Under the pieces are notes generated by a model. It did no database searches. It was given only the letters and a program-made list of their open reading frames with translations, and had not been told where the DNA came from. A DNA stretch of 64,000 bases from Elusimicrobiaceae bacterium (GTDB taxonomy: Bacteria; Elusimicrobiota; Elusimicrobia; Elusimicrobiales; Elusimicrobiaceae), in assembly GCA_017501565.1 (NCBI GenBank), contig JAFVWP010000137.1:1381-65380 (forward strand), given 5' to 3'. Shown in pieces: positions 33,001-55,524 of the stretch (position 1 is the stretch's first letter; each line of letters begins with the position of its first letter). The position numbers and the translations under genes are program-made.

Positions 33001-35610
33001 ATGAAAAGCACCGAAATAAGAAGCGGTTTTTTACAATTTTTCAATTCCAAAGGGTTGCCGGTTAAACCTTCCAGCTCTTTAATCCCCCATTCGGATCCGA
33101 CTTTGCTGTTTACTTCGGCGGGTATGGTCCAATTTAAGGCCAATTTTTTAGGCATTGATAAATCTTTAAAAAATGCTGCCACTTGCCAAAAATGCGTCCG
33201 CACCACCGATATTGACAGCGTGGGTTTCACCGAACGCCACCTGACGTTTTTTGAAATGTTGGGAAACTTTTCTTTCGGTGATTATTTTAAAAATGAAGCA
33301 ATTGCCTGGGCTTGGGAGTATTTAACCAAGGTCTTGCAAATCCCCGCGGAAAAACTTTCTGTCAGTATTTACAAAGGCGGCATTGCACCGCGCGACGAAG
33401 AAGCCTACAATGCCTGGCTGAAATATGTGCCTGCGGAACGGATTTTTGAATTGGGCGAAGCCGATAACTTTTGGACCATGGGTCCTACCGGTCCTTGCGG
33501 GCCTTGCTCCGAAATTTACTATGATTTTGGCGATAAAGGTTGCACCAATCCCCATTGTGATATTACGTGCAACTGCGGCCGTTATGTGGAAATTTGGAAC
33601 TTGGTCTTTACCCAATTTGACCGCCAAGAAGACGGCACCTTAAATGCCTTGCCCCATAAAAACATTGATACAGGTATGGGTTTAGAACGCTTGTGTATGG
33701 CCATGCAAAATGCCCGCAACGTTTTTGAAACCGATTTGTTCACTCCGCTTACCCGTCAAGCGCAAAAAGATTTGGGCATTGAAGGAAAAACAAAAGAAGA
33801 AATTTCCGCTTTGCGTATTATTGCCGACCACGTGCGTAGCTCTTCTTTCTTAATTGCGGAAGGGATTTTGCCCTCCAACGAAGGCCGCGGGTATATCTTG
33901 CGCCGTTTGATTCGCCGCGCCGCCCGCTACGGCAAATTGATGGGCAATGACAAACCCTATTTATATACCTTGGTACCGGTCGTGCAAGGTATTTTCGGCG
34001 GCTTGTACCCTGAAATTGATAAAAATGCCCAACATATTCAAGACGTACTTAAACAAGAAGAAAGCACTTTCTTAAAAACATTGGTCACCGGCGAAGAAAA
34101 ATTGGCCCAGCTCTTGGCTACTTGCGGTAAAACCTTGCCCGGGGCGGAAGCCTTCCACCTGCACGAAACCTATGGTTTTCCGCTAGAGCTTACCAAAGAA
34201 ATCGCCGCGGCTAAAAATGTGGCGGTAGATGAAGAAGGTTACGAAAAAGCCAAAGAATCTGCCCAAGAAAAAAGCCGTTCTTATGCTGATGAATTTTCTA
34301 AGGAAAAGGCCGTCATCATGCAAAAGGTGGAAAACAGCTACCCCGCCACCTTGTTTGTAGGGTATGAACAATTAACCGCTCAAGCCAAAGTATTGGCCTT
34401 ATTAAACGATAAATTTGAATTTGTAGACAGCTTAAACGGACAAGGTTATGCTGTTTTCAACCAAACCCCATTCTATGCCGAATCCGGCGGTCAGGTGGGC
34501 GATAAAGGGGTCGTGTGCCACAACGGACAAGAAACCGCACACATCACCGATACCCAAAAACCCTTGGGCAAAGTATATTTGCACAAAGTAAACGGCGCTT
34601 TACAAACGGGTGACGAAGTAACTTTATCGGTAGATGTCGCCCGCCGTAAACGTTGCATGGCCAACCACAGCGCCATTCACTTGGTCAATGCGGCTTTGCG
34701 TCAGGTATTTGGCAACAGCGTACACCAAAGCGGTTCTTTTGTATCTGAAGAACGCTTCCGCTTTGACTATACACTCTCCAGAACGCCGAGCGCCGAAGAA
34801 TTGAAAAAGGCTTGGAAAATAGCCAACGAAGCGGCCGAAGCGGCTTTGCCGGTGTATTGCCAAGAACGTCCTTTGGCCGATGCAGACCGCTTGGGTGCCG
34901 TGACCCTTTTGGGAGAAACCTATGCAGACCCGGCCCGCTTTGTATTGATGGGCGGCAGCTTTGAAAACCCCCAAGAAAAATACAGCTTGGAATTGTGCGG
35001 TGGGACACACGTAAAAAACACCGCAGAAGTCATGAGTATTTTGGTGCTGAAAGAAGGCTCCGTTTCTGCCGGGGTACGCCGTATTGAAGGCGTAGCCGGA
35101 TATGCCGCGTTGGACTATTTGAAAAATGTCCATGCACAAGCCGAAGAATTGGCCGCGCGCCTGGTGGTGCCCGCCAAAGACGTTTTCCAACGCGTAAATA
35201 CCATCATGGACGAATTGAAAGAAGTGAAAAAACGCTTCACGCAATTTAGAGAGAAAACATTAGCCGCCGGCGGGGTAAACGAAACAACCTTTACCATGCA
35301 AAACGGCACTACAGTAGTGTTGCGTAATGCCGAAGGAGCCGAGCCGAAAGAATTGCGTAATATTGCCGATACAATTGCCCAAAAACACCAACAAGCCTTA
35401 ATCATCGTAACGTGCGACAAAGAAGGCAAACGCTCTTTTGTGGTAAAAATGGTAGGCAAGCTGCCCAATACCGATGCCGTATCCGTAGCCAAAATGATAG
35501 CCGCTGACTTAAACGGACGCGCAGGCGGGCGGGCGGATTTTGCCCAAGGCGGCGGAGAAGCCAAACGCCCGATGTTGGACTTAATCGGCTCCATGAAAGA
35601 AAGTTTATAA
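33001..35610 (+). CDS. alaS: Alanine-tRNA ligase
   Basis: DPTLLFTSAGM, HLTFFEMLGNF, DTGMGLER; editing motifs HxxxH and ELCGGTH; C-Ala GGRADFAQGG. Confidence 0.98.
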   Translation: MKSTEIRSGFLQFFNSKGLPVKPSSSLIPHSDPTLLFTSAGMVQFKANFLGIDKSLKNAATCQKCVRTTDIDSVGFTERHLTFFEMLGNFSFGDYFKNEAIAWAWEYLTKVLQIPAEKLSVSIYKGGIAPRDEEAYNAWLKYVPAERIFELGEADNFWTMGPTGPCGPCSEIYYDFGDKGCTNPHCDITCNCGRYVEIWNLVFTQFDRQEDGTLNALPHKNIDTGMGLERLCMAMQNARNVFETDLFTPLTRQAQKDLGIEGKTKEEISALRIIADHVRSSSFLIAEGILPSNEGRGYILRRLIRRAARYGKLMGNDKPYLYTLVPVVQGIFGGLYPEIDKNAQHIQDVLKQEESTFLKTLVTGEEKLAQLLATCGKTLPGAEAFHLHETYGFPLELTKEIAAAKNVAVDEEGYEKAKESAQEKSRSYADEFSKEKAVIMQKVENSYPATLFVGYEQLTAQAKVLALLNDKFEFVDSLNGQGYAVFNQTPFYAESGGQVGDKGVVCHNGQETAHITDTQKPLGKVYLHKVNGALQTGDEVTLSVDVARRKRCMANHSAIHLVNAALRQVFGNSVHQSGSFVSEERFRFDYTLSRTPSAEELKKAWKIANEAAEAALPVYCQERPLADADRLGAVTLLGETYADPARFVLMGGSFENPQEKYSLELCGGTHVKNTAEVMSILVLKEGSVSAGVRRIEGVAGYAALDYLKNVHAQAEELAARLVVPAKDVFQRVNTIMDELKEVKKRFTQFREKTLAAGGVNETTFTMQNGTTVVLRNAEGAEPKELRNIADTIAQKHQQALIIVTCDKEGKRSFVVKMVGKLPNTDAVSVAKMIAADLNGRAGGRADFAQGGGEAKRPMLDLIGSMKESL

Positions 35611-35612
35611 TC

Positions 35613-35638
35613 AAAACCCCGGGTAACCGGGGTTTTTT
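35613..35638 (+). terminator. Intrinsic terminator after alaS
   Basis: AAAACCCCGG-GTAA-CCGGGGTTTTTT. Confidence 0.85.
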
Positions 35639-35761
35639 AGGGCCCAGAAAAACATAGGTCCAAATTCCCACAAAAATAGGTCCAAGGACCCTAGAAACAG
35701 ATATAGAGAAAGTCTATACTATAAGTGTAGAAGAAGTAAAAACAAAAAGGAGAACAATTTT

Positions 35762-36328
35762 ATGAAAAAAATGGCTTTATTGTTGGTACTAGCTTTTGTT
35801 TTACCCGCGGTAGCTTCTGCTTATGAATTTCCCTATGGCCGCGAAGGCAAAATTATGGCTTCTGTTGAAAATCTTATGAAAGAAGCGGACAAAAAAAATA
35901 AAGAACAACTTCAAAAGGCTCAAGAAGATGCTAAAAAAGCCGAAGAAGAAGCGAAAGCAAAAGAAAAAATGAGAATCACCGCTCAACAAGAAGCCCAAAA
36001 AGCAACGGAAGCTTTGCTTGCTTTGCAAGAAGCTTACCCTGAATATGCCGAAGAAGTGGCAAGATTCTCTCGCATTCATACTTACTTTGTAGGATTTGCT
36101 GATGGAAAAAATGCAAAAGACAGAAAAGAAGCCTTTGGCAATATCTTTATGCAATTAGAACATTTTTATAGCTGTCTGGAAGATTTGCCGGAAGAAGTGT
36201 CCAAACAGGTTTACGAAATTATGAACCACCAATATTGGATTCAATTTTCCGAAGACTCTTACAGCTTAAGAGGTTTAGGTCCTGCGGCAAAACGCGAAAC
36301 CGGTGTTTTTGATAGTGATTATTTCTAA
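35762..36328 (+). CDS. Secreted helical hypothetical protein (paralogue of 59100..59684)
   Basis: Signal peptide ending ASA; K/E/A-rich coiled coil; SD AGGAG. Confidence 0.75.
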   Translation: MKKMALLLVLAFVLPAVASAYEFPYGREGKIMASVENLMKEADKKNKEQLQKAQEDAKKAEEEAKAKEKMRITAQQEAQKATEALLALQEAYPEYAEEVARFSRIHTYFVGFADGKNAKDRKEAFGNIFMQLEHFYSCLEDLPEEVSKQVYEIMNHQYWIQFSEDSYSLRGLGPAAKRETGVFDSDYF

Positions 36329-36341
36329 AAAGTTGTTTTTT

Positions 36342-36370
36342 AAAAGCCCCGCATTTTGCGGGGCTTTTTT
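36342..36370. terminator. Bidirectional terminator marking the end of the polysaccharide locus
   Basis: AAAAGCCCCGCA-TTT-TGCGGGGCTTTT between convergent genes. Confidence 0.85.
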
Positions 36371-36377
36371 ATTGGAT

Positions 36378-37436
36378 TTACAAAAGGGATAAAAAAGTTT
36401 CCGCGCTGATTTTTAGACGTTTTTCATCAAAATTTTCTATCACCTTTCCGCCCCAGGCCCACAGCATATCCAAGTGTGGGGTCGGTACCTGTAAGATTTC
36501 CGCAATGCAGTGAAGCATAGCCAAACCGAAACAAAAATCTTCCGTAAAATAGCGGTTTGCAAAATCCGGCACAAAGCGGTCGGTCCCCTGTTTTTTCATA
36601 GGGGCTTTGATGCCTTGAAAGGCTTGGATAGAGCGAATTTTGTTCGTCAAAGCAGCCGCGTCTTGGCTTTCGTAATAGGTTAAAAGCGGGGGAACAGGGC
36701 TTAATTTTGCCGGATTCGCTCTCATAACTGCCTGAAACTCGGCATCGCACGCCACCAACAGCAAAGAACTTTCTAAATCCCAATCTTCATAAAACAAAAT
36801 TTCTTTTTCATAAGGACGCTGCGAAGAAAAGCGGTGAAACAAAGAGTATAGGCGGCTGGTGTGTAAAATAGGATTGCTGTTGGTTAAACAGGTCTGCAAA
36901 AAATGCGGCAACAGCACTACGGGCGTGGCAAACATTTCTTCCAGCGTTTCTGCTAATGCTTGTCCCGCCGCATGATGCAAGGTAGCCACCGCTAATTCTT
37001 TTTTATATCCCAACAAACAAGCACTACGTCCGTACTCTTTCACACGGGCAATAAAAGGCACCCGTTGAAAAGCAAATAAAGGGTTTTGGTCTCCCAAAAT
37101 TTCATGTGCTAAAAAGAAAAATCCGCTACTGCCCACCACACACCCCACTTGCGTCTGTTTAGACAAATGCGGTTTAATCCGGCGCAAAGCATCGGCGATG
37201 CAATAGCCGGGAAGGCAAAGCAATAGCATATCGGCATTTTTTACGATGGAAGGATCTTGCGAAATATGAAATAAATCTCCCCGCAAAACAGCGCCCCCGG
37301 GCGTATATATTTGCAGTGTTTTTTGCCATTTTTCCGCAGAAGAAGTGAGCAAAGAAACCTGATAGTCTCTATGCGCTAAAAAACCGCCGATGACATGCCC
37401 TAAATGGCCGCCGCCGCAAATGCAAATATGTTTCAT
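36378..37436 (-). CDS. NAD/NADP-dependent opine (octopine/nopaline) dehydrogenase family
   Basis: Rossmann ICGGGHLG; TNSNPILH, FYEDW and RYFTEDFCFGL motifs. Confidence 0.85.
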   Translation of the reverse strand: MKHICICGGGHLGHVIGGFLAHRDYQVSLLTSSAEKWQKTLQIYTPGGAVLRGDLFHISQDPSIVKNADMLLLCLPGYCIADALRRIKPHLSKQTQVGCVVGSSGFFFLAHEILGDQNPLFAFQRVPFIARVKEYGRSACLLGYKKELAVATLHHAAGQALAETLEEMFATPVVLLPHFLQTCLTNSNPILHTSRLYSLFHRFSSQRPYEKEILFYEDWDLESSLLLVACDAEFQAVMRANPAKLSPVPPLLTYYESQDAAALTNKIRSIQAFQGIKAPMKKQGTDRFVPDFANRYFTEDFCFGLAMLHCIAEILQVPTPHLDMLWAWGGKVIENFDEKRLKISAETFLSLL

Positions 37437-37438
37437 GA

Positions 37439-39229
37439 TTATAATGCTTCAATTAGCGCCGCATTGTCGGCTCTGTTTCGGATCGCAATGCGAATATAGT
37501 TCTTTTGCGCAAAGCCTTTTTTAGCGGAACAATCTTTAATAAAAATTTTCCGTTTCAAAAGTTCTTCTGCCAAGGCCGTCGCTGTTTTGGGCGGCAAAAC
37601 TTCGCACAAAAAATAATTCGCTTGCGAAGGATATACCCGCAAATAGGAAATCTTTTTTAGTTGCTGATAAAAAGTCTCCCGCTCTTGCGCAAAGAGCTGA
37701 CAAGCATTTTTATAATCGGCTTCATACTTGTGGTAAATTTGCAAAAAGAACTCGGCAAACGAGTTAATATTCCAAATAGATAACCGACGGCGCAAATCGT
37801 CCATCAACGCTGTATCTGCACTTGCGGCAATCCCTAAACGAAGCCCCGGTACACCATAAGATTTGGAAATACTTTTTAAAATAATCATCTGCGGGTAGCG
37901 GACTAAAATATCGTTTTTCAGCAAAGAGCTTTCCGCTCCTTTTTCCGCAAAATCCACAAAAGACTCATCTAAAACTAAACGGACTTGTTTAGCCCGGCAC
38001 CAATCCAACAAAGTCAACAAATCTTCTTTTCCGATAAAATTGCCGGACGGATTATCCGGATTAATCAGTAAAAGTGAAGATATGGCTTTGTCTTCAAAAT
38101 AAGCCATCACATCTTTTGCTGTATAAGAAAAACCCGGAGTTTGCGGGGTCCATATCACTAAATCTTGTTGTTTTCGGTTGGGGTACTCTTCAAAAGTAGG
38201 ATAAATCACCCCCATTTTTCCCGGCAATAAAGGCAATAGCTCTTTAATAATTTCCGCCGCGCCGTTTCCGACGGCTAAATACGGAGCATAAACATCAAAG
38301 TTTTTTGCCGCCAGCATACCCATTACACCCGCGCCGGAAGGATATTGGCAGAGTAAATCTTCAAAATTACTTTTTATTTCATCGCACATCTTTTGGGGCG
38401 GGAAATAAGGATTAACCAAATAACAAAAATCTTTCAACCCCGAAAAACGCCAATAGCCGCCGAATCTTTTTTGATAGCGTTGCAAAGTATTTTCTTGGGA
38501 GAAAATCATTTCTGCCGTATCCAAATCTTGCATATCGTCTATTTCATACCAACGCTCCCCTTGCAACGTGCGGGCGCGAATTTGGGCATTTTCAAGAGTA
38601 GATAAAACACGCAACACCTGCTCATAAAAGCCGTTATGCCCCAAAGCCTGGCAATAAGCCTCTAAAAAAGGAACATATTGTTTGGCAGAAAATTCTTTGG
38701 AAAATTTATAAATATTGATGGTTTTATAATAAGAATCTTTTTCGGCAAATTTAAAATTATTTTTAGCAATAAAAGACTCTATTCTTCCGTCATCGGAAAT
38801 TTTTACACAAGTGCCGTCATTCCAATTTTCGTACTTATTTACCAGCGCAATCGTGGGATAAGGGTCTTGCAAAATTTTATCCAACACGGCATCTTCAAAA
38901 ATAAGGTCCGACTCTAAGAGTAAAGTATCTTCTTGGGTCAAATATTCTTTGGCCAGCGCCAAAGAATAAATATTATTGGTTTTATCGTATATCGGGTTTT
39001 CTACAAAAACGATGGGTATATCCAACCCCAAACTTTTTACAAAACAGACCAAAGACTCGGCCTTGTACCCCACCACCAAAACAATGCGAGATAAATTCCG
39101 CCCGGCCAACTGCTTTAACATTCTTTCAATCAGCGTAACGCCGTTTACTTTGACCATACATTTGGTGTTATGCGCGGTCAACTCTTTCAATCTCCGGCCC
39201 AGGCCGGCTGCTAAAATAATGGCTTGCAT
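37439..39229 (-). CDS. Fusion of a LicC-like cytidylyltransferase and a class I/II PLP enzyme (HisC/CobD-like)
   Basis: N-terminus: AIILAAGLGRRL...TKCMV, LLESDL, WYEIDD. C-terminus: GNGAAE, NPDNPSG, DESF.DF, KSISKSYGVPGLRLG. Confidence 0.88.
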   Translation of the reverse strand: MQAIILAAGLGRRLKELTAHNTKCMVKVNGVTLIERMLKQLAGRNLSRIVLVVGYKAESLVCFVKSLGLDIPIVFVENPIYDKTNNIYSLALAKEYLTQEDTLLLESDLIFEDAVLDKILQDPYPTIALVNKYENWNDGTCVKISDDGRIESFIAKNNFKFAEKDSYYKTINIYKFSKEFSAKQYVPFLEAYCQALGHNGFYEQVLRVLSTLENAQIRARTLQGERWYEIDDMQDLDTAEMIFSQENTLQRYQKRFGGYWRFSGLKDFCYLVNPYFPPQKMCDEIKSNFEDLLCQYPSGAGVMGMLAAKNFDVYAPYLAVGNGAAEIIKELLPLLPGKMGVIYPTFEEYPNRKQQDLVIWTPQTPGFSYTAKDVMAYFEDKAISSLLLINPDNPSGNFIGKEDLLTLLDWCRAKQVRLVLDESFVDFAEKGAESSLLKNDILVRYPQMIILKSISKSYGVPGLRLGIAASADTALMDDLRRRLSIWNINSFAEFFLQIYHKYEADYKNACQLFAQERETFYQQLKKISYLRVYPSQANYFLCEVLPPKTATALAEELLKRKIFIKDCSAKKGFAQKNYIRIAIRNRADNAALIEAL

Positions 39230-39249
39230 AGATACTCCAAAAAGAAAAG

Positions 39250-40581
39250 TTAGCTATTTTTACCGATATGTTTGTCTTTTAAAAAAGCTCTTTTGGCTGT
39301 TTTTAAAATAATTTCCACATCTAAAAATAAAGATCTGTTTTTGATATACCACAGGTCATACGCCAAGCGCAAAACCGCATCTTGCAGTTTTTCCTGTGGA
39401 ATTTTTTTGTCTTTATCCAAATCTGCCAACACACAATACGTAGGCGGGGCTTTAAAATTAAGCTGGGCCCACCCGGTCAAACCCGGCTGAATAATATTTC
39501 TGATGCGGTGGCAATAAATATGTTCATTTAAAAACTGATATTCCCTATCCCACACCGGGCGCGGGCCGACAATAGAAATATCCCCCCGCAAAATATTGAT
39601 AAGTTGCGGAATTTCATCTAAACGAAAACGCCTTAAAAAAGCTCCCAAACGGGTCACTTCCTGTGTATGGGGTTTCATGGTTCTAAACTTATAAATGCAA
39701 ATGCGGCGGTCATTTCTGCCCATTCTGACTTGCGGGAAAAAAGGTGGCATTTTATCTGTATATTTAATAAGCCCGTAAATACACAACCCCAACGGAAAAA
39801 AGAGCGGAATAAGCACCAAACTAAAGCCAATATCTATGGCACGTTTTACCAACGGAAAAATGGTACGGCTTTGCCGTTGGGAAAGGCTTTGCACCAGCCA
39901 ATGCGGATTTTGCAAAGCTTCTGCAGAACAGCGGTTAAAAAGCCGCTCGTAAAACTGATAATCCGTTTCCAACAAAACGCCTTTGCAAATTAATTTTTCC
40001 AAAATCAGCGGCCACGCTTGGGGTGCTTTTTCCAAGCAATTATGTGCCATAATCATCAGATCCGGCAAAGGGGTATCCGGGCCAAGGGCTTCTTGCGCCG
40101 TAGCACAACGGCCGGCAATAACATATTCTTTATAAAAGGCCAAATCTTTTTCTATGGCTTTTAGGGTTTCGCTTTGGCCGACAAGCAATATTTTTTGCCG
40201 TACAAAAGCATACGAAGCATAGATTTTTCTGGACAAATAAAGATATGAAAAATAAACGACAAAAACGGAAAGCAAAATCAGCTTTGGCGTGGCAACATTA
40301 AAAAAAGACGTTGTATAATAAATACCGAAGCCGGAAGATAACAAAGAAATGGTAAAAGCCACCAGGATATTTTGATAATTCAGGCGTTGCTTTTTAATAG
40401 TGTTTATATCATAAAAAGAGAAAACCCACAAAATGAGTGTTACCAAACAAAACACCGGCATCAGTACTTGTATGGTAGGCACTAAAACAGAAGGGGAAAA
40501 ATCTTGATAACGCAGGATAACAACCCAGGATATAGTGGCAAAGAAAGAGATAAAATCCAGCAGTAAAAATAAAGCTCTCAT
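39250..40581 (-). CDS. Initiating polyprenyl-phosphate sugar-1-phosphate transferase (WcaJ/WbaP-like)
   Basis: Four N-terminal TMs; KRAIDI, YKFRTM, RLDEIPQLINILRGDISIVGPRP, PGLTGWAQ and DLWYIKNRS. Confidence 0.93.
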   Translation of the reverse strand: MRALFLLLDFISFFATISWVVILRYQDFSPSVLVPTIQVLMPVFCLVTLILWVFSFYDINTIKKQRLNYQNILVAFTISLLSSGFGIYYTTSFFNVATPKLILLSVFVVYFSYLYLSRKIYASYAFVRQKILLVGQSETLKAIEKDLAFYKEYVIAGRCATAQEALGPDTPLPDLMIMAHNCLEKAPQAWPLILEKLICKGVLLETDYQFYERLFNRCSAEALQNPHWLVQSLSQRQSRTIFPLVKRAIDIGFSLVLIPLFFPLGLCIYGLIKYTDKMPPFFPQVRMGRNDRRICIYKFRTMKPHTQEVTRLGAFLRRFRLDEIPQLINILRGDISIVGPRPVWDREYQFLNEHIYCHRIRNIIQPGLTGWAQLNFKAPPTYCVLADLDKDKKIPQEKLQDAVLRLAYDLWYIKNRSLFLDVEIILKTAKRAFLKDKHIGKNS

Positions 40582-41516
40582 AACTCCTTCTGCCCCAAAA
40601 TCATTTTTTGCAGACCCTCTTTTAAGCTGACTTTGGCTTCAAACCCGAGTTTGCAGATTTTACCTGTATCTGCCAAAGAGTGCCGCACATCGGCTTCTCT
40701 TTTAGGCGCAAAACGTATTTTAACAGGCTTACCCGTTACCGCTTCTATCTCTTGGATTAAAGCCAATAAAGACGTGCTCTTTGCACTGCCCACATTATAA
40801 ATTTCGCCCGCTTGGCCGTTTTGCATAACCGCCAGGGTAGCGCGGGCCACGTCTTCTACATAAATAAAATCGCGGGTTTGTTGCCCGTCCCAATCCACCA
40901 CGCATTCTTGCCCTTGCAAGGCTTGCTGTATAAATTTGGCTATCACCGCCGCATAGGCACTTTGCGCATTTTGACGCGGGCCAAATACATTAAAGTATCG
41001 CACCGCCATGGCAGACAGGCCGTACGTTTGATGATAGGTTTGGCATAGTTTTTCCCCGGCAAGCTTGCTAAAAGCGTACGGAGACAAACAAGCCGTAGAA
41101 GCATCTTCGGCATAAGGAGCCTGGGGCTTGTTGCCGTAAACCGCGCTGGAAGAAGCCAACACCACTTTCGGCACGTTTTATTCACACGCGGCTTTTAGGA
41201 CATTCAAAGTGCCTTCTACATTGATTTTTTGGGTCAAGGCCGGCTCTTGCACCGATAGCGGCACAGACACCAAGGCCGCTAAATGAAAAATGCCGTCTAT
41301 CCCCGCTAAAGATTTCTTTAAGGAAGGAAAATCTAAAATATCCCCCTTAATAAATGTAATTTTATCTTGAATTGCGGCTAAGTTTTCCGTTTTGCCTGAT
41401 GAAAGATTATCATAGACCACTACCCCATGCCCTTGGCGAAGCAAAAACGCTGCCAAGTGAGAGCCGATAAATCCGGCACCGCCGGTAATTAAAAAAGTGG
41501 AATTATTCTTTTTCAT
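40578..41516 (-). pseudogene. UDP-hexose/HexNAc 4-epimerase (WbpP-like) with an in-frame TAA at 41178-41180
   Basis: GGAGFIGSH and HLAALVSV upstream of the stop; SSSAVYG, YAFSK and RYFNVFGPRQ downstream. The sequence reads TGT GAA TAA AAC GTG CCG in one frame. Confidence 0.9.
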
Positions 41517-43218
41517 CTGTCTGATAATATTGATAGGATTTTTTGTAATAGCCGTATTTAGAGTAAGACATGGCCTTGGGTTGAAAGTGGCCCAGCACCG
41601 CACCTAAAATCTCAATACCCGCCTTGTTTAATTTATCCATTGCCGCCGCCGCCAAATGCGCATGCGTTTGCCCTTGTTTAAGCACAAATACCGCCCGGGG
41701 AATATAACGTCCCCACAATAAAGTATCCGAAACCGGCACAATGGCGGGGCAATCCACCAACACCTGGTCATAGTTTTTCTCTGCCCACGCAATTAAATCT
41801 GCCAAACGAGCCGAGTTCAAAAGCTCCGCCGGGTTGGGCGGGCGTTGACCCGCCGTCATTACAAAAAGATTTTCTACATCTGGCACTGCTTGCACATTAT
41901 AGCTATATTGGGCTTTTTCCCCTTCTTTTACCCAAAGATTACTCAAGCCTTTATCGGGTGACAGGTGAAACGCTTTATGCAGGCGGGAGCGGCGCAAATC
42001 CCCATCTATTAACAATGTCTTCTTTCCGGTTTGTGCCAGAGCAACAGCCAAATTGGTAGAGAGATGGCTTTTTCCTTCACCTTGCAAAGCACTTGTAATC
42101 AAAATGGGAGCATGCGGAGTTTTGGTTAAAGTAAAAGCCAGCATCGTGCGAATATTGCGCACGTTTTCTGCCAATAAGAAATGTCCTTCTTTCGTCATAA
42201 AGGCATATTCCGGCTCGTTCTTTTTAGTCTTTTCTTTAGGAACAAAACCCAAAAAAGCGACCCGGAGCTTTTTTTCCAAATCTTCGGCATTTTGAATGGT
42301 TTGGTCCAGGTAAGACAACACAAAAACAAACCCCAACCCCAGCAAACCGCCAGCCGACATACCGATTAATAAGTTTAAAAGTTTACGGGGCCGCACCGGG
42401 CTTTCGGCGGCGACGGCGGCATCTACTACGCGGATATTGTTGCCCGAAAATTGGCCGGACAACTCTATTTTAATGCTCTGCACCAAGCGTTTGGTTTCCA
42501 AAGCAATTTTATTTTGTACGGCGGCTAATTGCTTGTTTAAAGAAATCACTTCCGGGTGTTTTTGGGTATATTTGGCCGAGTATTGCGCCTGCTTGTTCAG
42601 CAGTTGCGCTTCTTGCAGTTTTAAGTTTTTAATAAAATCGCTATTAACCACTTGCGGCATGGAGTTCAAGAGCTCTTGGTCATCGCGGCTGCGCTCCGTG
42701 CTTTCCAACGCACGGATTACATCGGCCCCCATAGAAATTCTGTTTTTCACATTGTCTGCCACAAAAGTATCGGCTATTTCATTGGCTATTTCTGCCGATA
42801 AATGGCGGTCATACGCAGTCACGCTCACTTGCACCAAACGCGAACGCAACACAGGCACTACTTTTAATGATTTTAAAAGTTTTTTCCACCCGTAAGGATT
42901 TTTAAATTCATCATATTGGTTCAAATCCATTTTATCGTAAACTCTTTGCAACAGGTTACGGCTTTCCAATAGTTTATATTGCGTGCGGTAATAGTCTTCT
43001 GCCGAAGAAAAAGAAGTATAAGGATTGGTTTCTATTTTGCCCGCTTGCTCTTGATTAATCATCAGCAAAGCCGTAGATTGATAAGCCGGGCGCATAAAAG
43101 TATTGACCAATACCGCCCCCAAAAGCCCCAGCAATACAAAAGCCATCAGCACCCAACTATGTTTGAGTAGAATTTCAAAACATTGTGCAAGATTTATTTC
43201 TTCGTTTTTCTTTTCCAT
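41503..43218 (-). CDS. wzc: Wzc-like polysaccharide co-polymerase/BY-kinase
   Basis: Two TMs; Walker A GEGKS, A' LIDGD, B VLVD; C-terminal Tyr cluster YSKYGYYKKSYQYY. Confidence 0.93.
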   Translation of the reverse strand: MEKKNEEINLAQCFEILLKHSWVLMAFVLLGLLGAVLVNTFMRPAYQSTALLMINQEQAGKIETNPYTSFSSAEDYYRTQYKLLESRNLLQRVYDKMDLNQYDEFKNPYGWKKLLKSLKVVPVLRSRLVQVSVTAYDRHLSAEIANEIADTFVADNVKNRISMGADVIRALESTERSRDDQELLNSMPQVVNSDFIKNLKLQEAQLLNKQAQYSAKYTQKHPEVISLNKQLAAVQNKIALETKRLVQSIKIELSGQFSGNNIRVVDAAVAAESPVRPRKLLNLLIGMSAGGLLGLGFVFVLSYLDQTIQNAEDLEKKLRVAFLGFVPKEKTKKNEPEYAFMTKEGHFLLAENVRNIRTMLAFTLTKTPHAPILITSALQGEGKSHLSTNLAVALAQTGKKTLLIDGDLRRSRLHKAFHLSPDKGLSNLWVKEGEKAQYSYNVQAVPDVENLFVMTAGQRPPNPAELLNSARLADLIAWAEKNYDQVLVDCPAIVPVSDTLLWGRYIPRAVFVLKQGQTHAHLAAAAMDKLNKAGIEILGAVLGHFQPKAMSYSKYGYYKKSYQYYQTDEKE

Positions 43219-43227
43219 ATCCAACCC

Positions 43228-43872
43228 TTAAAACATACTTTGCGGCACAAAAACAATATCGCCCGCTTGCAACACCATATCCAACGCTTTATTGCCTTGC
43301 TTGGTAATTTGGGCAACATCTACGTCCAACGCGGTTTGTTGTCCGTTCTCCATACGCAAAACGCGCACCTTGCTGATAGCGGCCAAATCCGTAAATCCGC
43401 CCACGGAAGTAATTGCTTCCAATAAAGTAAGCGGTTTCTCAGGTAGCAAAGCAAGGGCCGCCGGTTTGGCTACCTGACCCAACACATACACATTGTGATT
43501 GCCATACTCTTTAATCAGCAAAGAAACTTGCGGGTCTTTAATATATTCTTCCAATGCAACCGCCAATACTTTTTCCGCTTGGGAAACGGACAGCCCGGCT
43601 ATTTGAATATTGCCTACCAGCGGATAAGTAATGGTACCGCCCGTGGATATGCGCAACGTGCGCAACATATCCTTTTCCATAAATACCTGTATTTCCAGCA
43701 AATCGCCCGGTTGCAGTTTATATTCCGCGCTGGTCTTTAATTGCGTCAAATTGTCGTTTAAAATTGTTTCGGTGGGCACTCCGGCAGGGATTTCCTGGCG
43801 CGGATCAGTGGCGGCACAAGCCCCCAAAAAGCCCAAAAGCAGAAAAAAGGAAAAATATTTGTATAGGTTCAT
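43228..43872 (-). CDS. wza: Short OPX/Wza-like export lipoprotein (Poly_export plus one SLBB)
   Basis: Lipobox LGAC, YKLQPGD, GTITYPLVG, VYVLGQV and LLEAI..GG; ends at GDIVFVPQSMF with no OM helix. Confidence 0.9.
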   Translation of the reverse strand: MNLYKYFSFFLLLGFLGACAATDPRQEIPAGVPTETILNDNLTQLKTSAEYKLQPGDLLEIQVFMEKDMLRTLRISTGGTITYPLVGNIQIAGLSVSQAEKVLAVALEEYIKDPQVSLLIKEYGNHNVYVLGQVAKPAALALLPEKPLTLLEAITSVGGFTDLAAISKVRVLRMENGQQTALDVDVAQITKQGNKALDMVLQAGDIVFVPQSMF

Positions 43873-43906
43873 TTTTATATTTTACTATATATCTTCCTAT
43901 ACAAAA

Positions 43907-45535
43907 CTAATCTAAAGTATTTATAAAAAGGGCAGATAATTCTTTTTCTTTAGGGTATTTTTTTAAGTATTTTTCAGCCAATGCGTGTGCTTGTTGGCGG
44001 TATTGTTTTTGTTGGGCAAGCGATATTTGGTTATCCAAACTTTTATGATAAAGTGAAAGCCCTAATTCCAACGCATAACGCGGAGACGGATAATAAGAAA
44101 GAACTTTTTGTTGATAGGCAATCTTTTGCTCAAATTTAAACCCCTTACCCAAGCGCCCCAACTGCCACGCAATCGTTTTGCACACCGGGACGTATAAACA
44201 AACCGCTAACAACAATCCCATAGCCGCTAAAACAAGCGGACGCACAGACTTCCTTTGGCCTTCTTCGCGCCAGAAAGTTTCCCCGCATAAAAGACCCGAT
44301 AAGATAAAAAAGAATACGCCACAAGCGGGAATATAAAAGTGAAAATCCACCATCGTCGCACACACAAAACCGGTTAAACCGCAAAAAATGCCCCCCATCA
44401 ATAATGCCTTGTGGCGGGGAAGAACAAAAAGACGTTTCAAAAGCCTTAAAATCCCCATTAGCAGTAAGAGCAGTAAAGGCACAGCGCCCACAAAACCCAC
44501 GCCGAGCAACAACTCTAATCCGTCGCTATGCAAACGCGCCACATATAGGTGCAGGGGTTTATCCATATAAACAGGAAGTACCACCGGCAAACTGCCTACG
44601 CCAAAACCAAAAAGGGGACGCTCTTTAAAAGCTTTTCCGGCCGCCTGATAGAGCTGCACACGGGTATCTGCCGAAAAGGACGAATTTCTTTTGGCAAAGG
44701 TTTGAATGGCGTTTTCGGCCTGAAGCCCGCCTATCAACAGCACTCCAAAAAATAACACAATCCCCAACACCGCACCTATTTTCTGCCAAGTCTTTTTAAG
44801 TAGTAAACAAACCGCTAAAACAGAAAAGCAAAACCCTGATACCCAAAAGGCCAACAACACCCCTCTGGAACGGCTAAACACCGCACTAAAGCAAAGCAGT
44901 AGCGACAAAAGCAACCAGACACTTTGTTTAGCATAAAAATCGGCCCGGCGGTTTTGCAAGGCATATTGGCGGCGCTGTGTTAAAAAACTCCCCCACAAAG
45001 CCAAAGCCGTAAAACCGCCCAAAAATAAAAAGATACCGCCGTTATTTCGGTTCAAAAAGGGTCCAACGCCGTCTTTAAGCCCGCTAAAAAATTTTAAATA
45101 TCCCCCGGGCCAAACCATGTGCAGCAGTGCCACCGCCCCGCAAATGCCACACAATCCCAGCAAAAAAAGCCGGGTTTCTTTCAGATTGCGGCACAAGCAG
45201 GCCGACAATACAAAAACGCTCCACCACAGCACAAATAAACCGGCATGCTCCAGCCCAAACAAAGGCATTACGCTAGAAGGATAAAAAGGCGGATTTTCCA
45301 ATAATGTAGTGGGAAAACACGTCTGCAACAGGGTATATAAGATAAGAAAGGCAAAGAAAAAAGAGAGTATTTTACCGACCGGTGAAAAATAAATTTTCCG
45401 TTGGCAAAAGTAGCTCACAAACAAGATTGAAAACAACACCTGATACGTACTTAAAGTCCAGGCTTGCGTACCGCCAAAAGCAAACACCAGAAAGGAAAAT
45501 AAAAACAAGAAAAAACTTTTATAAAACAGGCTCAT
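43907..45535 (-). CDS. O-antigen ligase/oligosaccharyltransferase-like membrane protein (Wzy_C)
   Basis: Many TMs; GPFLNRN, SRSRG, FGFGVGS and LHSDGLE motifs. The start position is uncertain. Confidence 0.75.
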   Translation of the reverse strand: MSLFYKSFFLFLFSFLVFAFGGTQAWTLSTYQVLFSILFVSYFCQRKIYFSPVGKILSFFFAFLILYTLLQTCFPTTLLENPPFYPSSVMPLFGLEHAGLFVLWWSVFVLSACLCRNLKETRLFLLGLCGICGAVALLHMVWPGGYLKFFSGLKDGVGPFLNRNNGGIFLFLGGFTALALWGSFLTQRRQYALQNRRADFYAKQSVWLLLSLLLCFSAVFSRSRGVLLAFWVSGFCFSVLAVCLLLKKTWQKIGAVLGIVLFFGVLLIGGLQAENAIQTFAKRNSSFSADTRVQLYQAAGKAFKERPLFGFGVGSLPVVLPVYMDKPLHLYVARLHSDGLELLLGVGFVGAVPLLLLLLMGILRLLKRLFVLPRHKALLMGGIFCGLTGFVCATMVDFHFYIPACGVFFFILSGLLCGETFWREEGQRKSVRPLVLAAMGLLLAVCLYVPVCKTIAWQLGRLGKGFKFEQKIAYQQKVLSYYPSPRYALELGLSLYHKSLDNQISLAQQKQYRQQAHALAEKYLKKYPKEKELSALFINTLD

Positions 45536-45574
45536 ACCTTTCATTCTATAAAATTTGATATATTGGAATAAGTT

Positions 45575-46039
45575 ATGAAAATATGTTTTGTCTGCCAAGC
45601 CAACATTTGCCGAAGTTTTGTAGCGCAACAATTGCTCCAACACCTTTTAACGCAAAATAAAAAGCCGAATATAGAGATTATTTCCCGCGGGATTTATACT
45701 TCACCCGCTTATGCGGTGCCGGATAAAATCAAAAATTTTTTGGCCCAAAAACAAATTTTGCCACAAGCTCACACACCTGTATTGCTCTCTAAGCAAGATT
45801 TGGCCCAAAGCGATTTGGTATTAGTCATGACGCAAGAACAATGGGATTTTGTATTTAATCAAGCCCCGCAATTTACCGACAAATATCACTTATTGGCTGA
45901 ATATGCCCTGGGGCAAGAGCAAGACATAGAAGACCCCATTTCTTTGACAGGCAAAGCGTTTGACCGGGTCATGACCCAATTAGAAAAGGCCGTCTTGGAA
46001 GTTTACCGAAAAATTACCCGTCCCGATACCGCCCTATAA
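45575..46039 (+). CDS. wzb: Low-molecular-weight protein tyrosine phosphatase (Wzb-like)
   Basis: CQANICRS (CX5R) and DIEDP. Confidence 0.9.
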   Translation: MKICFVCQANICRSFVAQQLLQHLLTQNKKPNIEIISRGIYTSPAYAVPDKIKNFLAQKQILPQAHTPVLLSKQDLAQSDLVLVMTQEQWDFVFNQAPQFTDKYHLLAEYALGQEQDIEDPISLTGKAFDRVMTQLEKAVLEVYRKITRPDTAL

Positions 46040-46936
46040 GCGCTCTGTCGCCGCATCAAAAGCAATGACAAAATGACGTTCCCTTTTTTCGGGTGGGGGC
46101 ACTTGCATATAGTCTTTTCCGTAAATAGAGCTTAAATAAATTTTGGGTTGCTGGGGCAAAACTACTTCTACCCCTTCAAACAGCCCCTTCTTACCGGGCA
46201 AATAAATATCTTTGGAAAGGACATTATTAAAATATCTGCCGCAAGCAATGGTCATCAGATGGCTTTTGCGGCCCGACATCATTTTATCGGCCCAATTACA
46301 CCAGGTCCGGTGCGGAATGACCGACAAACCTTTGCCAAACATTTTGCGAATAAAAAAGGCCGATTTTGTTTTGCGGCTTTGGCTCATAAAAAGAGCCATT
46401 TCCGCGCTGGGGTATTGCGCGTAAAAAACAGACACCGCTATTTGGCATAACAAATTACAAAACGCGCCTTTTATCCAACGTAAAAATTTATTTTCAGGCG
46501 CATAGTCTAACGGAAAAATATCTATATAAATGCCTTTAGGAAAAGAAGTTTGCGTATCGGATATTTCCAAAAACAAAGTGCCTTTTTTATAGATTTTGGT
46601 GAAATTATTTTTAGATTCTTTGCCGGTATTAGGGGCTGTAAACTCGTATTTATCGCCTAATTCCCGCTCAAAAATAGTAAAAAATTTAGGCAAATCTTTT
46701 CGCAAAACCAACAGGTCCAAATCGTCGTCCCAAGGGATAAAGCCCCCATGGCGCACCGCCCCCAAACAAGAGCCAAAGCCCAACATATACGTTATATGAT
46801 GTTTTTCAAAAACACGCATCAAGTCTTGCAACATTTCAAGCAATGCTTTTTTCAGTTGTGCTTTTTCTTCTTCCGTTAAAGCATGCAATTGTGTGCTTTT
46901 GCGTGCCAAAACATTCATATCGGCCGTTGTGCCCAT
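46034..46936 (-). CDS. licD: LicD-family CDP-alcohol phosphotransferase
   Basis: GSCLGAVRHGGFIPWDDDLD, IDIFPLD and YL..IYG.DYMQVPP. Confidence 0.92.
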   Translation of the reverse strand: MGTTADMNVLARKSTQLHALTEEEKAQLKKALLEMLQDLMRVFEKHHITYMLGFGSCLGAVRHGGFIPWDDDLDLLVLRKDLPKFFTIFERELGDKYEFTAPNTGKESKNNFTKIYKKGTLFLEISDTQTSFPKGIYIDIFPLDYAPENKFLRWIKGAFCNLLCQIAVSVFYAQYPSAEMALFMSQSRKTKSAFFIRKMFGKGLSVIPHRTWCNWADKMMSGRKSHLMTIACGRYFNNVLSKDIYLPGKKGLFEGVEVVLPQQPKIYLSSIYGKDYMQVPPPEKRERHFVIAFDAATERL

Positions 46937-46949
46937 ATTTTTCCCCTTT

Positions 46950-48155
46950 CTATTTTCCGTCAAAAAATCTTTGGTATATTTTTTTAACCAGCGTAACACA
47001 AAAAGGCTTTATTCCCAAAAGTTCGCGCAATAAAGCGTTCAAAGGCTCTTTTCGCCATCGCACAAAAAATTCGGACCGCTTAGCATGCGGTATGCAAGAG
47101 CGGAAAATAGCCGGATTATGCAACATAGCCTGGCGGGCGTCTATCTCCATCGTTTTTATCCCGCTTTTACGCACATATTCGGCCCCTTTAGGCGTATTTA
47201 CCCCCAAGAAAGAAACTCCTTCGTGTTTATTCTTAGGAGTTAAAATATCCGGCCACTCGCCCCACAAATCCCCCAGCGTTACATCGGCCATGCGTTTTTC
47301 CAAATCTTTAGACAGACACAAGTGGCAACTCGGCCGCAGAAAAAGCCCCGCCAAATATCCGCGCAGAAAAAGATTGTGAAACACAAAAGCAGGCGTCATG
47401 GAAAAGAAAGAAAAAATTTTCTCAGCCAAGGTTTGTTTTTGGCTGTGCGCTACCCATTGCCTGCCGACACGAAAACCTAAAAAATACCGGCTCCAACCGC
47501 CGTCTTTTTTACGAAAATTAATCTCTTGCGGAAAAGTGGACGGGAAATTTTCCCGCAAAAATCTTTGCCACACGCCCGTAGAGGCCACACCCAAGCAAAT
47601 AAGTTGTGCCGTTAACAAATGCGCGTAATCTTTATTTAAATAATTACGCAGACCGGCTATTTGGCAAGGAGTGCCCACAAACAGCACACGCCGCCCTTGC
47701 TCCAAAAATTCGTGCGCCTGCCGATAGCTTTGACCAATATCGCTTTGCACATATTTGGAACGGCGCAATTTATCCAAGTCTGACTCGTTATCCACCCATT
47801 GATGAAACACGCGGTATCTTTCATCAAAACAGGCCCCAAACACTACCCCTTTTTCCTTTAATATTTCTTCTGCCAGGGCCGAAAAAACACCCCCCGAAGA
47901 ACTTTTGAGTAAAATTTCCATTTGGCCATGTCGGGCCGCATACACTTGCTGTTGGACAAACATATCGGGCTTGCGCAAAGAAGGGCAGACCGAACGGCAA
48001 AGCCCGCAACCGATGCACCGGGCATGATCTATATGCGGATACAAAAAGCCTTCTCCGTCCGCTTCCATAGAAATACACCCATGCGTGCAAATATTTACGC
48101 ACGCCTGGCAACCGCTGCATTTGTTTTTATCTACTACCGGGATCATCTGTTCCAT
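46950..48155 (-). CDS. FrhB-like (F420 hydrogenase beta-like) oxidoreductase with two 4Fe-4S motifs
   Basis: CSGCQACVNIC, CIGCGLCRSVCP, SSSGG, SKYVQS, GTPCQ, RPSCHLC and DVTLGDLWG. Confidence 0.88.
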   Translation of the reverse strand: MEQMIPVVDKNKCSGCQACVNICTHGCISMEADGEGFLYPHIDHARCIGCGLCRSVCPSLRKPDMFVQQQVYAARHGQMEILLKSSSGGVFSALAEEILKEKGVVFGACFDERYRVFHQWVDNESDLDKLRRSKYVQSDIGQSYRQAHEFLEQGRRVLFVGTPCQIAGLRNYLNKDYAHLLTAQLICLGVASTGVWQRFLRENFPSTFPQEINFRKKDGGWSRYFLGFRVGRQWVAHSQKQTLAEKIFSFFSMTPAFVFHNLFLRGYLAGLFLRPSCHLCLSKDLEKRMADVTLGDLWGEWPDILTPKNKHEGVSFLGVNTPKGAEYVRKSGIKTMEIDARQAMLHNPAIFRSCIPHAKRSEFFVRWRKEPLNALLRELLGIKPFCVTLVKKIYQRFFDGK

Positions 48156-49648
48156 ATTTTTCTAAAAGGAGCTTTCAATAAATTTTTTTCGTATTCGTTC
48201 ATTGCCAAAAACCACATCGCAGCACCATACAACAAGCTAAAGCCGACAATTTCCGCTCCCAAGCTCCAAATACAAAGCGGCCACGTCAGCACATTTTTTA
48301 ACAGCATCATCAGGCCCACCGGCAAAAGCATACAAAGCCACAAACGCACGATTTGCGCGAAAAAAGACTTTATGCAAAAACCAAGCCTAGCATAATAAAT
48401 ATTTAAAATAATTCCTTGCCCCAACAGCAAGCACCCCGCCGTAACGGCCGCACAGGCCATTGCGCCGTAGTGTTTAGCCAAAGGGACCGCCACCAACACA
48501 TTCAGCACCGCAATCAAGGCAAACACTACCGCCCGAAAAGCGTGTTTATTTCTGGCTTGTAAAATAAAAATGCCGGTATTTTGAATTAAAGGTAAAATCA
48601 GAGCCGCCATCAAAAGTAATGTATAAGCATAAGCCGGCAAAAAGTTTTCTCCCGCCCACAGCCGTAAAAAGGATTTACCGAACAAAGCAAATCCCCAAAA
48701 AAACAACATCACCACATAACACTGCAAACGGCCCACTTTAAGAAAAATCTGATTCATTTCCGTCATAGAGCCTTTGGCCGCCAAGGCCGACAAATGCGGT
48801 AAAAACACACCGCTCATATTGGCAGACACATTCATATAAGAAAGGCACAATTGCACAGCCACGGCATATACGGCCACCACCATTGTACCGCTGATCGCAC
48901 CTAAAATCAATTGGCCGCTTTTCCAATAAATCTGGTCCATAACCGCATTTAAAAAAATGAAAAAAGAAAAGAATAAAATTTCTTTTACAAAGGGCCTATC
49001 CCAACCATGTAAACGAAAACGTACTTTTAATTGAAACAAACAATAATACACATTGGCTAAGAATAAGGCAAAATTGCAAAGTGTCTGCACGCACACCAAA
49101 GCAATGATATTGGCCCGAAAATGCAAAACCACAAACACCAAAACCGGCTGTAAAATGATATTCAAAAGAGTCGCACATCGTAAAAAAATAAATTTTTCAT
49201 GCGATTGGATAATCGCCGAAAAAATATGCCCCGGTATCACAAACGCCACATTTATAAGCATAATGGCATAGACATATTTGGCCGTCAGCATATCGGCCGA
49301 AGAAAGCGTTTTGGCATAAAAAGGAACAAGTACTTGCCAAAGCCCCGCACCGACCAATAAAATCAAAACGGAAATGCCTCCATAAATACGCAACATCGTC
49401 GCCAACAGGTTTTCTTGTTTTTCGCGGTCCTGTTGTGCCAAAAAGCGGGAATAATAACGAATGGTGGTATTGGAAAGGCCAAAGTCCATAATAGCGATAT
49501 ATGCAATCATAGAACCGACCAATTGGTACAAGCCATATTGCTGTTGGCTTAAAAAAGCCAGCAACATTGGCACATACAACAAGCCGATCAGGCCGTTGAT
49601 CCCCATGGTCAAATAAGAAAGCAAAACGCCTATTTTTCGCTGGTTCAT
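48143..49648 (-). CDS. wzx: Wzx flippase
   Basis: About 12-14 TMs; YGLYQLVGS..Y..IMDFGL start motif. Confidence 0.88.
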   Translation of the reverse strand: MNQRKIGVLLSYLTMGINGLIGLLYVPMLLAFLSQQQYGLYQLVGSMIAYIAIMDFGLSNTTIRYYSRFLAQQDREKQENLLATMLRIYGGISVLILLVGAGLWQVLVPFYAKTLSSADMLTAKYVYAIMLINVAFVIPGHIFSAIIQSHEKFIFLRCATLLNIILQPVLVFVVLHFRANIIALVCVQTLCNFALFLANVYYCLFQLKVRFRLHGWDRPFVKEILFFSFFIFLNAVMDQIYWKSGQLILGAISGTMVVAVYAVAVQLCLSYMNVSANMSGVFLPHLSALAAKGSMTEMNQIFLKVGRLQCYVVMLFFWGFALFGKSFLRLWAGENFLPAYAYTLLLMAALILPLIQNTGIFILQARNKHAFRAVVFALIAVLNVLVAVPLAKHYGAMACAAVTAGCLLLGQGIILNIYYARLGFCIKSFFAQIVRLWLCMLLPVGLMMLLKNVLTWPLCIWSLGAEIVGFSLLYGAAMWFLAMNEYEKNLLKAPFRKIWNR

Positions 49649-49654
49649 ACCCTT

Positions 49655-50755: not shown

Positions 50756-50783
50756 TTAAATGGCTCCCTGTTGCTTAAAAATC

Positions 50784-55522: not shown

Positions 55523-55524
55523 TT

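Follow-up and report, generated by a model that had tools for sequence, protein, structure and literature searches.

The Lic phosphocholine pathway (LicA-D) of Streptococcus pneumoniae and Haemophilus joins the LicC-like synthesis of a cytidine diphosphate (CDP)-activated amino alcohol to its LicD-mediated transfer to a glycan. In Treponema denticola, the PntC-AEPT protein Tde1415 (6pd1), which also feeds LicD-type transferases, has a LicC-like cytidylyltransferase fused at the N-terminal side of a pyridoxal 5′-phosphate (PLP) enzyme. FrbH, from the FR-900098 pathway of Streptomyces rubellomurinus, likewise carries a PF12804 cytidylyltransferase and a C-terminal CobD-like PLP domain on one polypeptide; this domain decarboxylates a cytidine monophosphate (CMP) conjugate, whose amine is then tailored while still CMP-linked. 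Here, we analyze two adjacent genes in a 64,000-nt stretch of DNA (the window) from an Elusimicrobiaceae metagenome-assembled genome (1.47 Mb, 92% complete). They encode a 596-aa cytidylyltransferase-PLP fusion protein (FUS) and a 352-aa opine-dehydrogenase-family protein (ODH), and an ORF check confirmed that they are the last two genes of a polysaccharide locus, as a sequence-only reading of the window had stated. On balance, we favor the view that the pair synthesizes and tailors the donor for a head-group decoration of the glycan, in a pathway in which phosphoserine would be converted to CDP-ethanolamine, N-carboxyalkylated and transferred by LicD.

By its architecture, FrbH, which the sequence-only reading does not mention, is the closest characterized enzyme to FUS. 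It is a PF12804 enzyme that places CMP on L-2-amino-4-phosphonobutyrate (Rice et al. 2019). However, its substrate is a phosphonate and its pathway leads to an antibiotic, with removal of the CMP at a later stage, whereas FUS is encoded in a genome without a PEP mutase match, in a glycan locus with LicD and with an opine dehydrogenase as the candidate amine tailor. Tde1415 differs in that its PLP domain is a class V 2-aminoethylphosphonate transaminase with a phosphonate substrate, and FUS matches its N-terminal domain alone. Compared with the Lic pathway, the proposed system involves neither a kinase nor an uptake step; instead, the fused PLP enzyme would synthesize the amino alcohol phosphate de novo, and the opine-type N-alkylation would be an extra step. 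The proposed system is thus a variant of CDP-alcohol/LicD head-group decoration that combines an FrbH-like fused synthase with an opine-type tailoring enzyme.

The PLP half of FUS can be compared with SMUL_1544, CobD and Cj1436, fold-type I PLP decarboxylases of O-phospho-amino acids, which differ from it in being stand-alone enzymes whose products are not cytidylylated. The sequence-only reading had invoked Campylobacter jejuni Cj1436, and correctly so: this enzyme decarboxylates L-serine phosphate to provide the ethanolamine phosphate of the capsule, and Cj1437 transaminates dihydroxyacetone phosphate (DHAP) (PMC11800397). The Cj1436 product is amide-linked to glucuronate, as opposed to the phosphodiester proposed here. 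ODH has the two-domain fold of the octopine dehydrogenase of Pecten (OcDH), CENDH of Arthrobacter and the staphylopine/pseudopaline dehydrogenases. Their substrates are free amino acids or amines of the nicotianamine type, whereas the amine of ODH is predicted to be (CDP-)ethanolamine phosphate, and, in contrast to them, the ODH family is often fused to LicD. The product predicted for the cassette formed by FUS, ODH and LicD is found in the O-antigen of Proteus mirabilis O14, which carries N-[(R)-1-carboxyethyl]ethanolamine phosphate on O-6 of galactose; this substituent had also been cited correctly, and its configuration is R. The likeness is one of chemical structure, and the Proteus O-antigen gene-cluster paper assigns no genes to the substituent (Cet-EtnP; O14 cluster GenBank KY710694).

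Domains and catalytic residues of FUS, ODH and LicD

The ORFs of FUS (37439-39229) and ODH (36378-37436), both on the minus strand, were confirmed at these coordinates and are separated by 2 nt. The pair lies 20 nt downstream of the gene for an initiating polyprenyl-phosphate glycosylphosphotransferase (39250-40581, minus strand; PF02397 2e-47, TIGR03025 2e-62), in the same orientation, and is probably co-transcribed with it. Pfam places NTP_transferase/NTP_transf_3 (PF00483/PF12804, above cut-offs) in the N-terminal part of FUS and Aminotran_1_2 in the C-terminal part. Together with the NCBIfam and PDB matches, this agrees with the LicC-like cytidylyltransferase fused to a HisC/CobD-like PLP enzyme that had been read from the sequence. 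The LicC/PntC-like domain spans about residues 1-245 (38495-39229, minus strand) and matches LicC (1jyk, 4e-13) and PntC-AEPT (6pd1, 1e-11, residues 2-239). Its G-loop LAAGLGRRL occupies residues 6-14, within a signature LAAGLGRRL...TK that spans residues 6-23. These nearest relatives suggest the use of cytidine triphosphate (CTP) and of a small phospho-alcohol substrate.

The CobD/SMUL_1544-like domain, a predicted phospho-amino-acid decarboxylase, covers about residues 255-596 (37442-38467, minus strand). Its PDB matches are led by SMUL_1544 (6oux; 2e-37, 132.8 bits) and CobD (1lc5; 1e-32, 116.9 bits), both above the best HisC structure (94 bits), and the full-length protein retrieves the same two entries (5e-37 and 3e-32, respectively). 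The Schiff-base lysine is K456, located in SISKSYGVPGLRLG; it aligns with the lysine of LTKFY in CobD chain 1lc5 (K216 in CobD numbering). The PLP motifs NPDNPSG and DESF are kept across the family, and the family-invariant motif DFCYLVNPYF corresponds to DACYLSNPY in SMUL_1544, an L-serine-O-phosphate decarboxylase. The HisC motifs NENP and DEAY are missing from FUS, which has LVNP and DESF at these positions; the HisC-like paralogues of the same genomes do have NENP/DEAY. The N-terminal GG motif is CobD-like and the CYLxNPY motif SMUL_1544-like. The CobD-type role foreseen for this domain is thus in keeping with its nearest solved relative and with the loss of the HisC hallmarks: these features favor a decarboxylase over a transaminase, by a modest margin and without proving the reaction type. 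With 177 bits for CobD (TIGR01140) and 144 bits for HisC, both NCBIfam models stay under their cut-offs, and the domain appears to be a distinct subfamily and not CobD itself. A reading of the pair in terms of the pneumococcal CDP-2-glycerol pathway (Gtp1-3 and WchX) was set aside, since the intact PLP lysine would argue for amine chemistry.

Two other assignments of the PLP step have to be weighed here. The domain could be a transaminase that, like Cj1437, converts DHAP to serinol phosphate, or that forms a different amino-alcohol phosphate; the product would then be cytidylylated and handed to ODH and LicD. Cj1437 shows that such chemistry operates in capsule loci, DHAP is universally available, and the HisC model scores just 33 bits under the CobD model. 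However, the best solved relatives, 6oux and 1lc5, are decarboxylases, the replacement of NENP/DEAY and the CobD-like and SMUL_1544-like motifs point the same way, and the architecture matches that of the decarboxylase FrbH; we therefore regard a transaminase as improbable. A decarboxylase acting on L-threonine phosphate, which would give an (R)-1-amino-2-propanol phosphate head group as in the CobD reaction, seems less probable still, even though the best NCBIfam model is precisely that of the threonine-phosphate decarboxylase CobD. SMUL_1544, the closest solved relative, prefers serine phosphate, and phosphoserine is a central metabolite that can be supplied by an adjacent serC-like/serA-like gene pair in this genome. 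Threonine phosphate, in contrast, needs a dedicated kinase; none is conserved in the cassette, a PduX-type kinase not having been searched for genome-wide. The PDB title of 6oux is ‘threonine phosphate decarboxylase-like’. Because FUS is the one strong CobD/HisC-family member of the genome, where no separate CobD or HisC was found, it is not doubling as a cobalamin or histidine enzyme.

ODH matches Octopine_DH (PF02317, 9e-32; 110.6 bits against a cut-off of 30) after an ApbA-type Rossmann N-domain, whose residues 4-14 (ICICGGGHLGH) contain the GxGxxG pattern, and is the only protein of the genome to match this family. It aligns over its full length with Pecten OcDH (3c7a, 7.5e-30). H192, R295 and D300 fall on the catalytic H212, R324 and D329 of OcDH and are invariant in 15 homologues. 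A Foldseek search with the AlphaFold2 model (predicted local distance difference test 91.5) returned OcDH with template-modeling (TM) scores of 0.82-0.84 and CENDH with 0.80. The staphylopine/pseudopaline/yersinopine dehydrogenases (0.66-0.72) and the ketopantoate and mandelate reductases (~0.62) followed at lower scores, so that the modeled fold is nearest to true opine dehydrogenases, ahead of ketopantoate reductases. The opine dehydrogenase identity previously assigned to this gene is hence borne out by its catalytic residues and predicted fold, and its homology suggests that it would use NAD(P)H to attach a carboxyalkyl group reductively to the nitrogen of the amino-alcohol head group. Known opine dehydrogenases give a D/(R) center, which matches the (R)-carboxyethyl group of P. 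mirabilis O14.

The candidate transferase is encoded further upstream in the same locus, where the sequence-only reading had placed it. This 300-aa LicD-family phosphotransferase (46034-46936, minus strand; PF04991 3e-42) carries a DDDLD motif and is present in one copy genome-wide according to a profile search. Its open frame reaches 46999, and the start at the ATG at 46936 is backed by a syntenic 300-aa LicD in the contig of a sister strain (L123). Neither the Choline_kinase family (PF01633) nor PEP_mutase (PF13714) has any match genome-wide in this 92%-complete assembly, choline transporters not having been searched for; the absence of choline kinase and phosphonate genes claimed from the window alone thus extends to the genome.

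Linkage of the three families across genomes

A scan with one genome per species recovered relatives of ODH in at least 522 species. The best 80 loci, which were taken for neighborhood analysis, are almost all from Bacteroidota, plus Fibrobacter, and their carriers include Prevotella, Phocaeicola vulgatus ATCC 8482, P. sartorii, Hoylesella timonensis, Odoribacter and Fluviicola. The ODH, FUS and LicD proteins of the window served as queries against the six-frame ORFs of these loci, and the counts that follow are from the 65 loci with at least 3 kb of flank on each side. FUS lies within 300 bp of ODH in 62 of them. LicD is fused to the C-terminus of ODH in 9/65 and lies within 2.5 kb of it in 44/65, and a compact FUS-ODH-LicD trio is present in 51/65; ODH-LicD fusion proteins of 596-599 aa are also numerous in the protein database. 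A co-occurrence survey of the three families, proposed earlier as a check of the pathway, thus turned out in its favor, with FUS adjoining ODH in 62/65 loci and LicD fused to it or nearby in 53/65. Clustering of all ORFs within ±7 kb of the ODH loci revealed no fourth widely shared gene, kinase included.

The linkage of FUS to ODH also holds within a single lineage. Of 251 genomes sampled evenly from the GTDB family of P. vulgatus, 47 have FUS and 27 a strong ODH match, and in all 27 ODH adjoins FUS on the same contig. When 400 other genomes were sampled evenly across the phylum, ODH turned up in 1. Host-associated Bacteroidales are thus the main carriers of the cassette, which is rare outside them. 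In a literature search, we found no published study of the FUS-ODH-LicD cassette and no paper joining LicD with an opine or octopine dehydrogenase, and a search on serine phosphate decarboxylase or on CDP-ethanolamine with LicD returned nothing useful.

The converse does not hold, as 20 of the 47 FUS-positive genomes of the P. vulgatus family sample are without ODH. LicD lies within 4 kb of the ODH-less FUS in about nine of these 20. A second FUS copy of P. vulgatus lies in a different capsule locus (L100:8539-11525, genome G101, contig C35), where a TagF-like gene for a CDP-glycerol-type phosphotransferase (PF04464) directly follows FUS and is translationally coupled to it, in place of ODH and LicD; this locus adjoins the same FrhB-like and pyruvyl-transferase pair as the window. 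In three ODH-less genomes, the gene directly downstream of FUS is of the ornithine cyclodeaminase (OCD)/mu-crystallin family (PF02423) and unrelated in sequence to ODH. Members of the OCD/mu-crystallin family are NAD(P)H imine reductases, and PF02423 includes a tauropine dehydrogenase. A FastTree phylogeny of 95 FUS proteins shows ODH-linked members scattered among ODH-less ones, and its well-supported branches force at least eight changes; ODH-linked loci were sampled via ODH, and the tree carries no information on frequency.

We read these arrangements as FUS alone making a CDP-linked head group that is usable by LicD or TagF-type transferases, the FUS product being probably the same with or without ODH. 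Since FUS occurs without ODH near a LicD or TagF-like gene, or with an imine-reductase-family gene in the place of ODH, tailoring of the amine by ODH or an analogous imine reductase is optional, and ODH is not an obligatory partner of FUS.

Two further observations concern cassette members outside this pattern. In one FUS clade (L109, L113 and L117, ~42% identity), the PLP lysine is gone (DIATAYG) and the other PLP-site motifs are degraded, with the cytidylyltransferase domain kept; the C-terminal domain of this clade may be a pseudo-enzyme domain. In two of these three loci, L109 and L117, the gene lies downstream of an M13 peptidase gene. In about 30 of the 80 ODH loci (for example, L001:5445-20356), FUS-ODH-LicD sits in a small conserved glycan locus beside metG (methionyl-tRNA synthetase), which in P. 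vulgatus-type genomes also holds Wzx, three glycosyltransferases and a YfhO-family protein; the position has the look of a fixed site in the chromosome and not of a variable capsule locus.

Proposed pathway and order of steps

Based on these comparisons, we propose that FUS converts L-phosphoserine and CTP into CDP-ethanolamine, one domain cytidylylating and the other decarboxylating. By analogy with FrbH, the decarboxylation may take place on the CMP-linked amino acid (CDP-serine to CDP-ethanolamine), as opposed to a cytidylylation of ethanolamine phosphate. ODH would then condense the free primary amine of CDP-ethanolamine with a 2-oxo acid, most likely pyruvate, and reduce the imine with NAD(P)H to give a CDP-linked N-(1-carboxyalkyl)ethanolamine. 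Lastly, LicD would place the phospho-head group on a hydroxyl of a sugar in the lipid-linked repeat unit, on the cytoplasmic side and ahead of Wzx flipping and Wzy polymerization. In this scheme, we infer the substrates (phosphoserine and pyruvate), the nucleotide, the order of the steps and the acceptor. The pathway logic of the sequence-only reading, with its PLP step, CTP activation, carboxyalkylation and LicD transfer, is supported by gene linkage, residues and fold, and the identity of the product is still an inference.

The position of ODH in this order can be narrowed in part. A PLP aldimine is formed by primary and not by secondary amines, which places ODH downstream of the PLP step. 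An ODH that acts on CDP-ethanolamine is in line with the fusions to LicD and with the interspersed FUS tree, both of which are also compatible with other orders. ODH could act off the CDP donor, on free ethanolamine phosphate or on the head group once transferred by LicD, or it could be a plain carbonyl reductase. The fusions to LicD would fit a post-transfer modification equally well, and the fold of ODH is common to ketopantoate and mandelate reductases. Against this, the many loci with FUS but no ODH, interspersed on the tree, indicate a cytidylyltransferase that takes the unmodified compound, the His/Arg/Asp set and the top structural matches are of the opine dehydrogenase type and not of the ketopantoate reductase type, and tailoring in the FrbH pathway takes place on the CMP conjugate. 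We accordingly consider these alternatives unlikely and retain CDP-ethanolamine as its predicted substrate.

Several points nevertheless weigh against the proposed pathway. The function of every cassette member is predicted from sequence, and this includes the biochemistry as well as the structural chemistry of the product. For FUS, the 177 bits obtained with TIGR01140 compare with a CobD equivalog cut-off of 290.55 and represent a modest lead over HisC. The Phe/Tyr position of DExF/Y was rejected as a discriminator between decarboxylases and transaminases: it is not clean, the CobD-like paralogue of Phocaeicola vulgatus having Tyr. For ODH, OcDH Gln118, a pyruvate ligand, is replaced by Ser103. 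No LicD was seen within ±10 kb of ODH in 12 of the 65 loci, and the LicD of the window is ~29% identical to cassette-linked LicDs and lies 7 kb from the FUS-ODH pair, which is an unusual placement among cassette members. An in-frame TAA in the neighboring epimerase gene, described below, means that the function of the locus may be impaired in this strain. Finally, in L110 (7083-9876), as in L116 and L121, FUS and its PF02423 neighbor are found in a dapB-lepB...nadA housekeeping context, with no glycan genes or transferase nearby; such a pair may provide the head group for a target whose genes lie at another site.

These last loci also bear on the idea that the pair is unconnected with the polysaccharide of the window, its adjacency being due to chance and its product a soluble metabolite or a lipid head group. 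A genome of a second Elusimicrobiaceae genus can be cited for it as well (L087:7567-10554, genome G071), in which a FUS homologue is convergent with a distant ODH and no LicD was detected within ±10 kb. In the window, however, 20 nt separate the pair from the co-oriented gene of the initiating transferase upstream, this arrangement is syntenic in the sister strain, and the locus holds no other donor pathway for LicD. Together with the LicD genes fused to or near ODH in 53 of the 65 other loci, this makes a chance adjacency very unlikely.

Having weighed these points, we hold with good confidence that the product of the cassette is an amino-alcohol phosphate, N-modified and CDP-activated, that is destined for a glycan. 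An N-(1-carboxyalkyl)ethanolamine phosphate is its most likely identity, and the specific assignment to N-(1-carboxyethyl)ethanolamine phosphate, the substituent of Proteus O14, is an almost even prospect. The ‘1-carboxyethyl’ of Odoribacter was examined as a further precedent and rejected, being an unrelated O-lactyl ether on mannose. In its broadest form, the proposal is of a kinase-free route from phosphoserine to CDP-ethanolamine, via an FrbH-like fused enzyme, that feeds opine-type phosphodiester decorations of glycans and has spread horizontally through hundreds of gut, rumen and oral species; this we put forward tentatively, at somewhat less than an even chance.

If correct, the cassette would provide bacteria with a self-contained synthesis of CDP-ethanolamine from a central metabolite, and with its conversion into an opine-like head group bearing positive as well as negative charges. 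The charge pattern of the surface polysaccharides of gut Bacteroidota shapes immune recognition, and the carriers of the cassette include abundant commensals, among them Phocaeicola vulgatus ATCC 8482 and many Prevotella species. To our knowledge, the proposal would also be the first gene assignment for the N-carboxyethyl-aminoethyl phosphate substituents that are known chemically from Proteus, and would extend the opine dehydrogenases to nucleotide-linked or phosphorylated amines.

The Elusimicrobiaceae locus and its origin

Within its own family, the cassette is sporadic. The sister-strain contig L123 has the same locus in the same order (AlaRS 97%, FUS 90% and ODH 88% identical). Across 100 other genomes of the family, an ODH relative is present in 0 of 51 congeners and in the one genome of another genus mentioned above, at 34% identity. 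The nearest non-self relatives are Bacteroidales proteins, with ~60% identity for FUS and 50-53% for ODH. Because it is absent from the 51 sampled congeners and its nearest relatives are in Bacteroidales, the cassette was probably acquired horizontally, and in this window it represents a rare addition to an Elusimicrobiaceae capsule locus.

FUS and ODH are the final genes of this minus-strand locus (36378-56349), and the neighboring gene beyond them is convergent. A promoter and terminator scan of 35500-40700 gave counts near chance. According to Pfam and NCBIfam scans, the remainder of the locus (40578-56349, minus strand) is of the Wzx/Wzy-dependent type. It comprises an epimerase gene with an in-frame stop, Wzc, Wza, a Wzy_C protein, LicD and an FrhB-like protein, together with Wzx, a UDP-GlcNAc 2-epimerase, a pyruvyl transferase, Wzy and three glycosyltransferases. 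The interrupted gene (40578-41603, minus strand) encodes a short-chain dehydrogenase/reductase (SDR) sugar epimerase/dehydratase and is split by one TAA at 41178-41180 (AACE*NVPKVV). At the equivalent place, the sister contig has an intact 312-aa epimerase gene (L123:7713-8651), and the TAA reflects either a nonsense mutation particular to this strain or a mistake in the assembly.

Two minor features of the locus can be added. The locus encodes two Wzy_C-domain membrane proteins on the minus strand, of 578 aa (43907-45643) and 411 aa (51979-53214); one may be the polymerase and the other a ligase-like protein or a second polymerase. On the opposite strand, a 154-aa ORF (45575-46039, plus strand) occupies the position at which the sister contig has an LMWPc gene, encoding a Wzb-like low-molecular-weight phosphotyrosine phosphatase.

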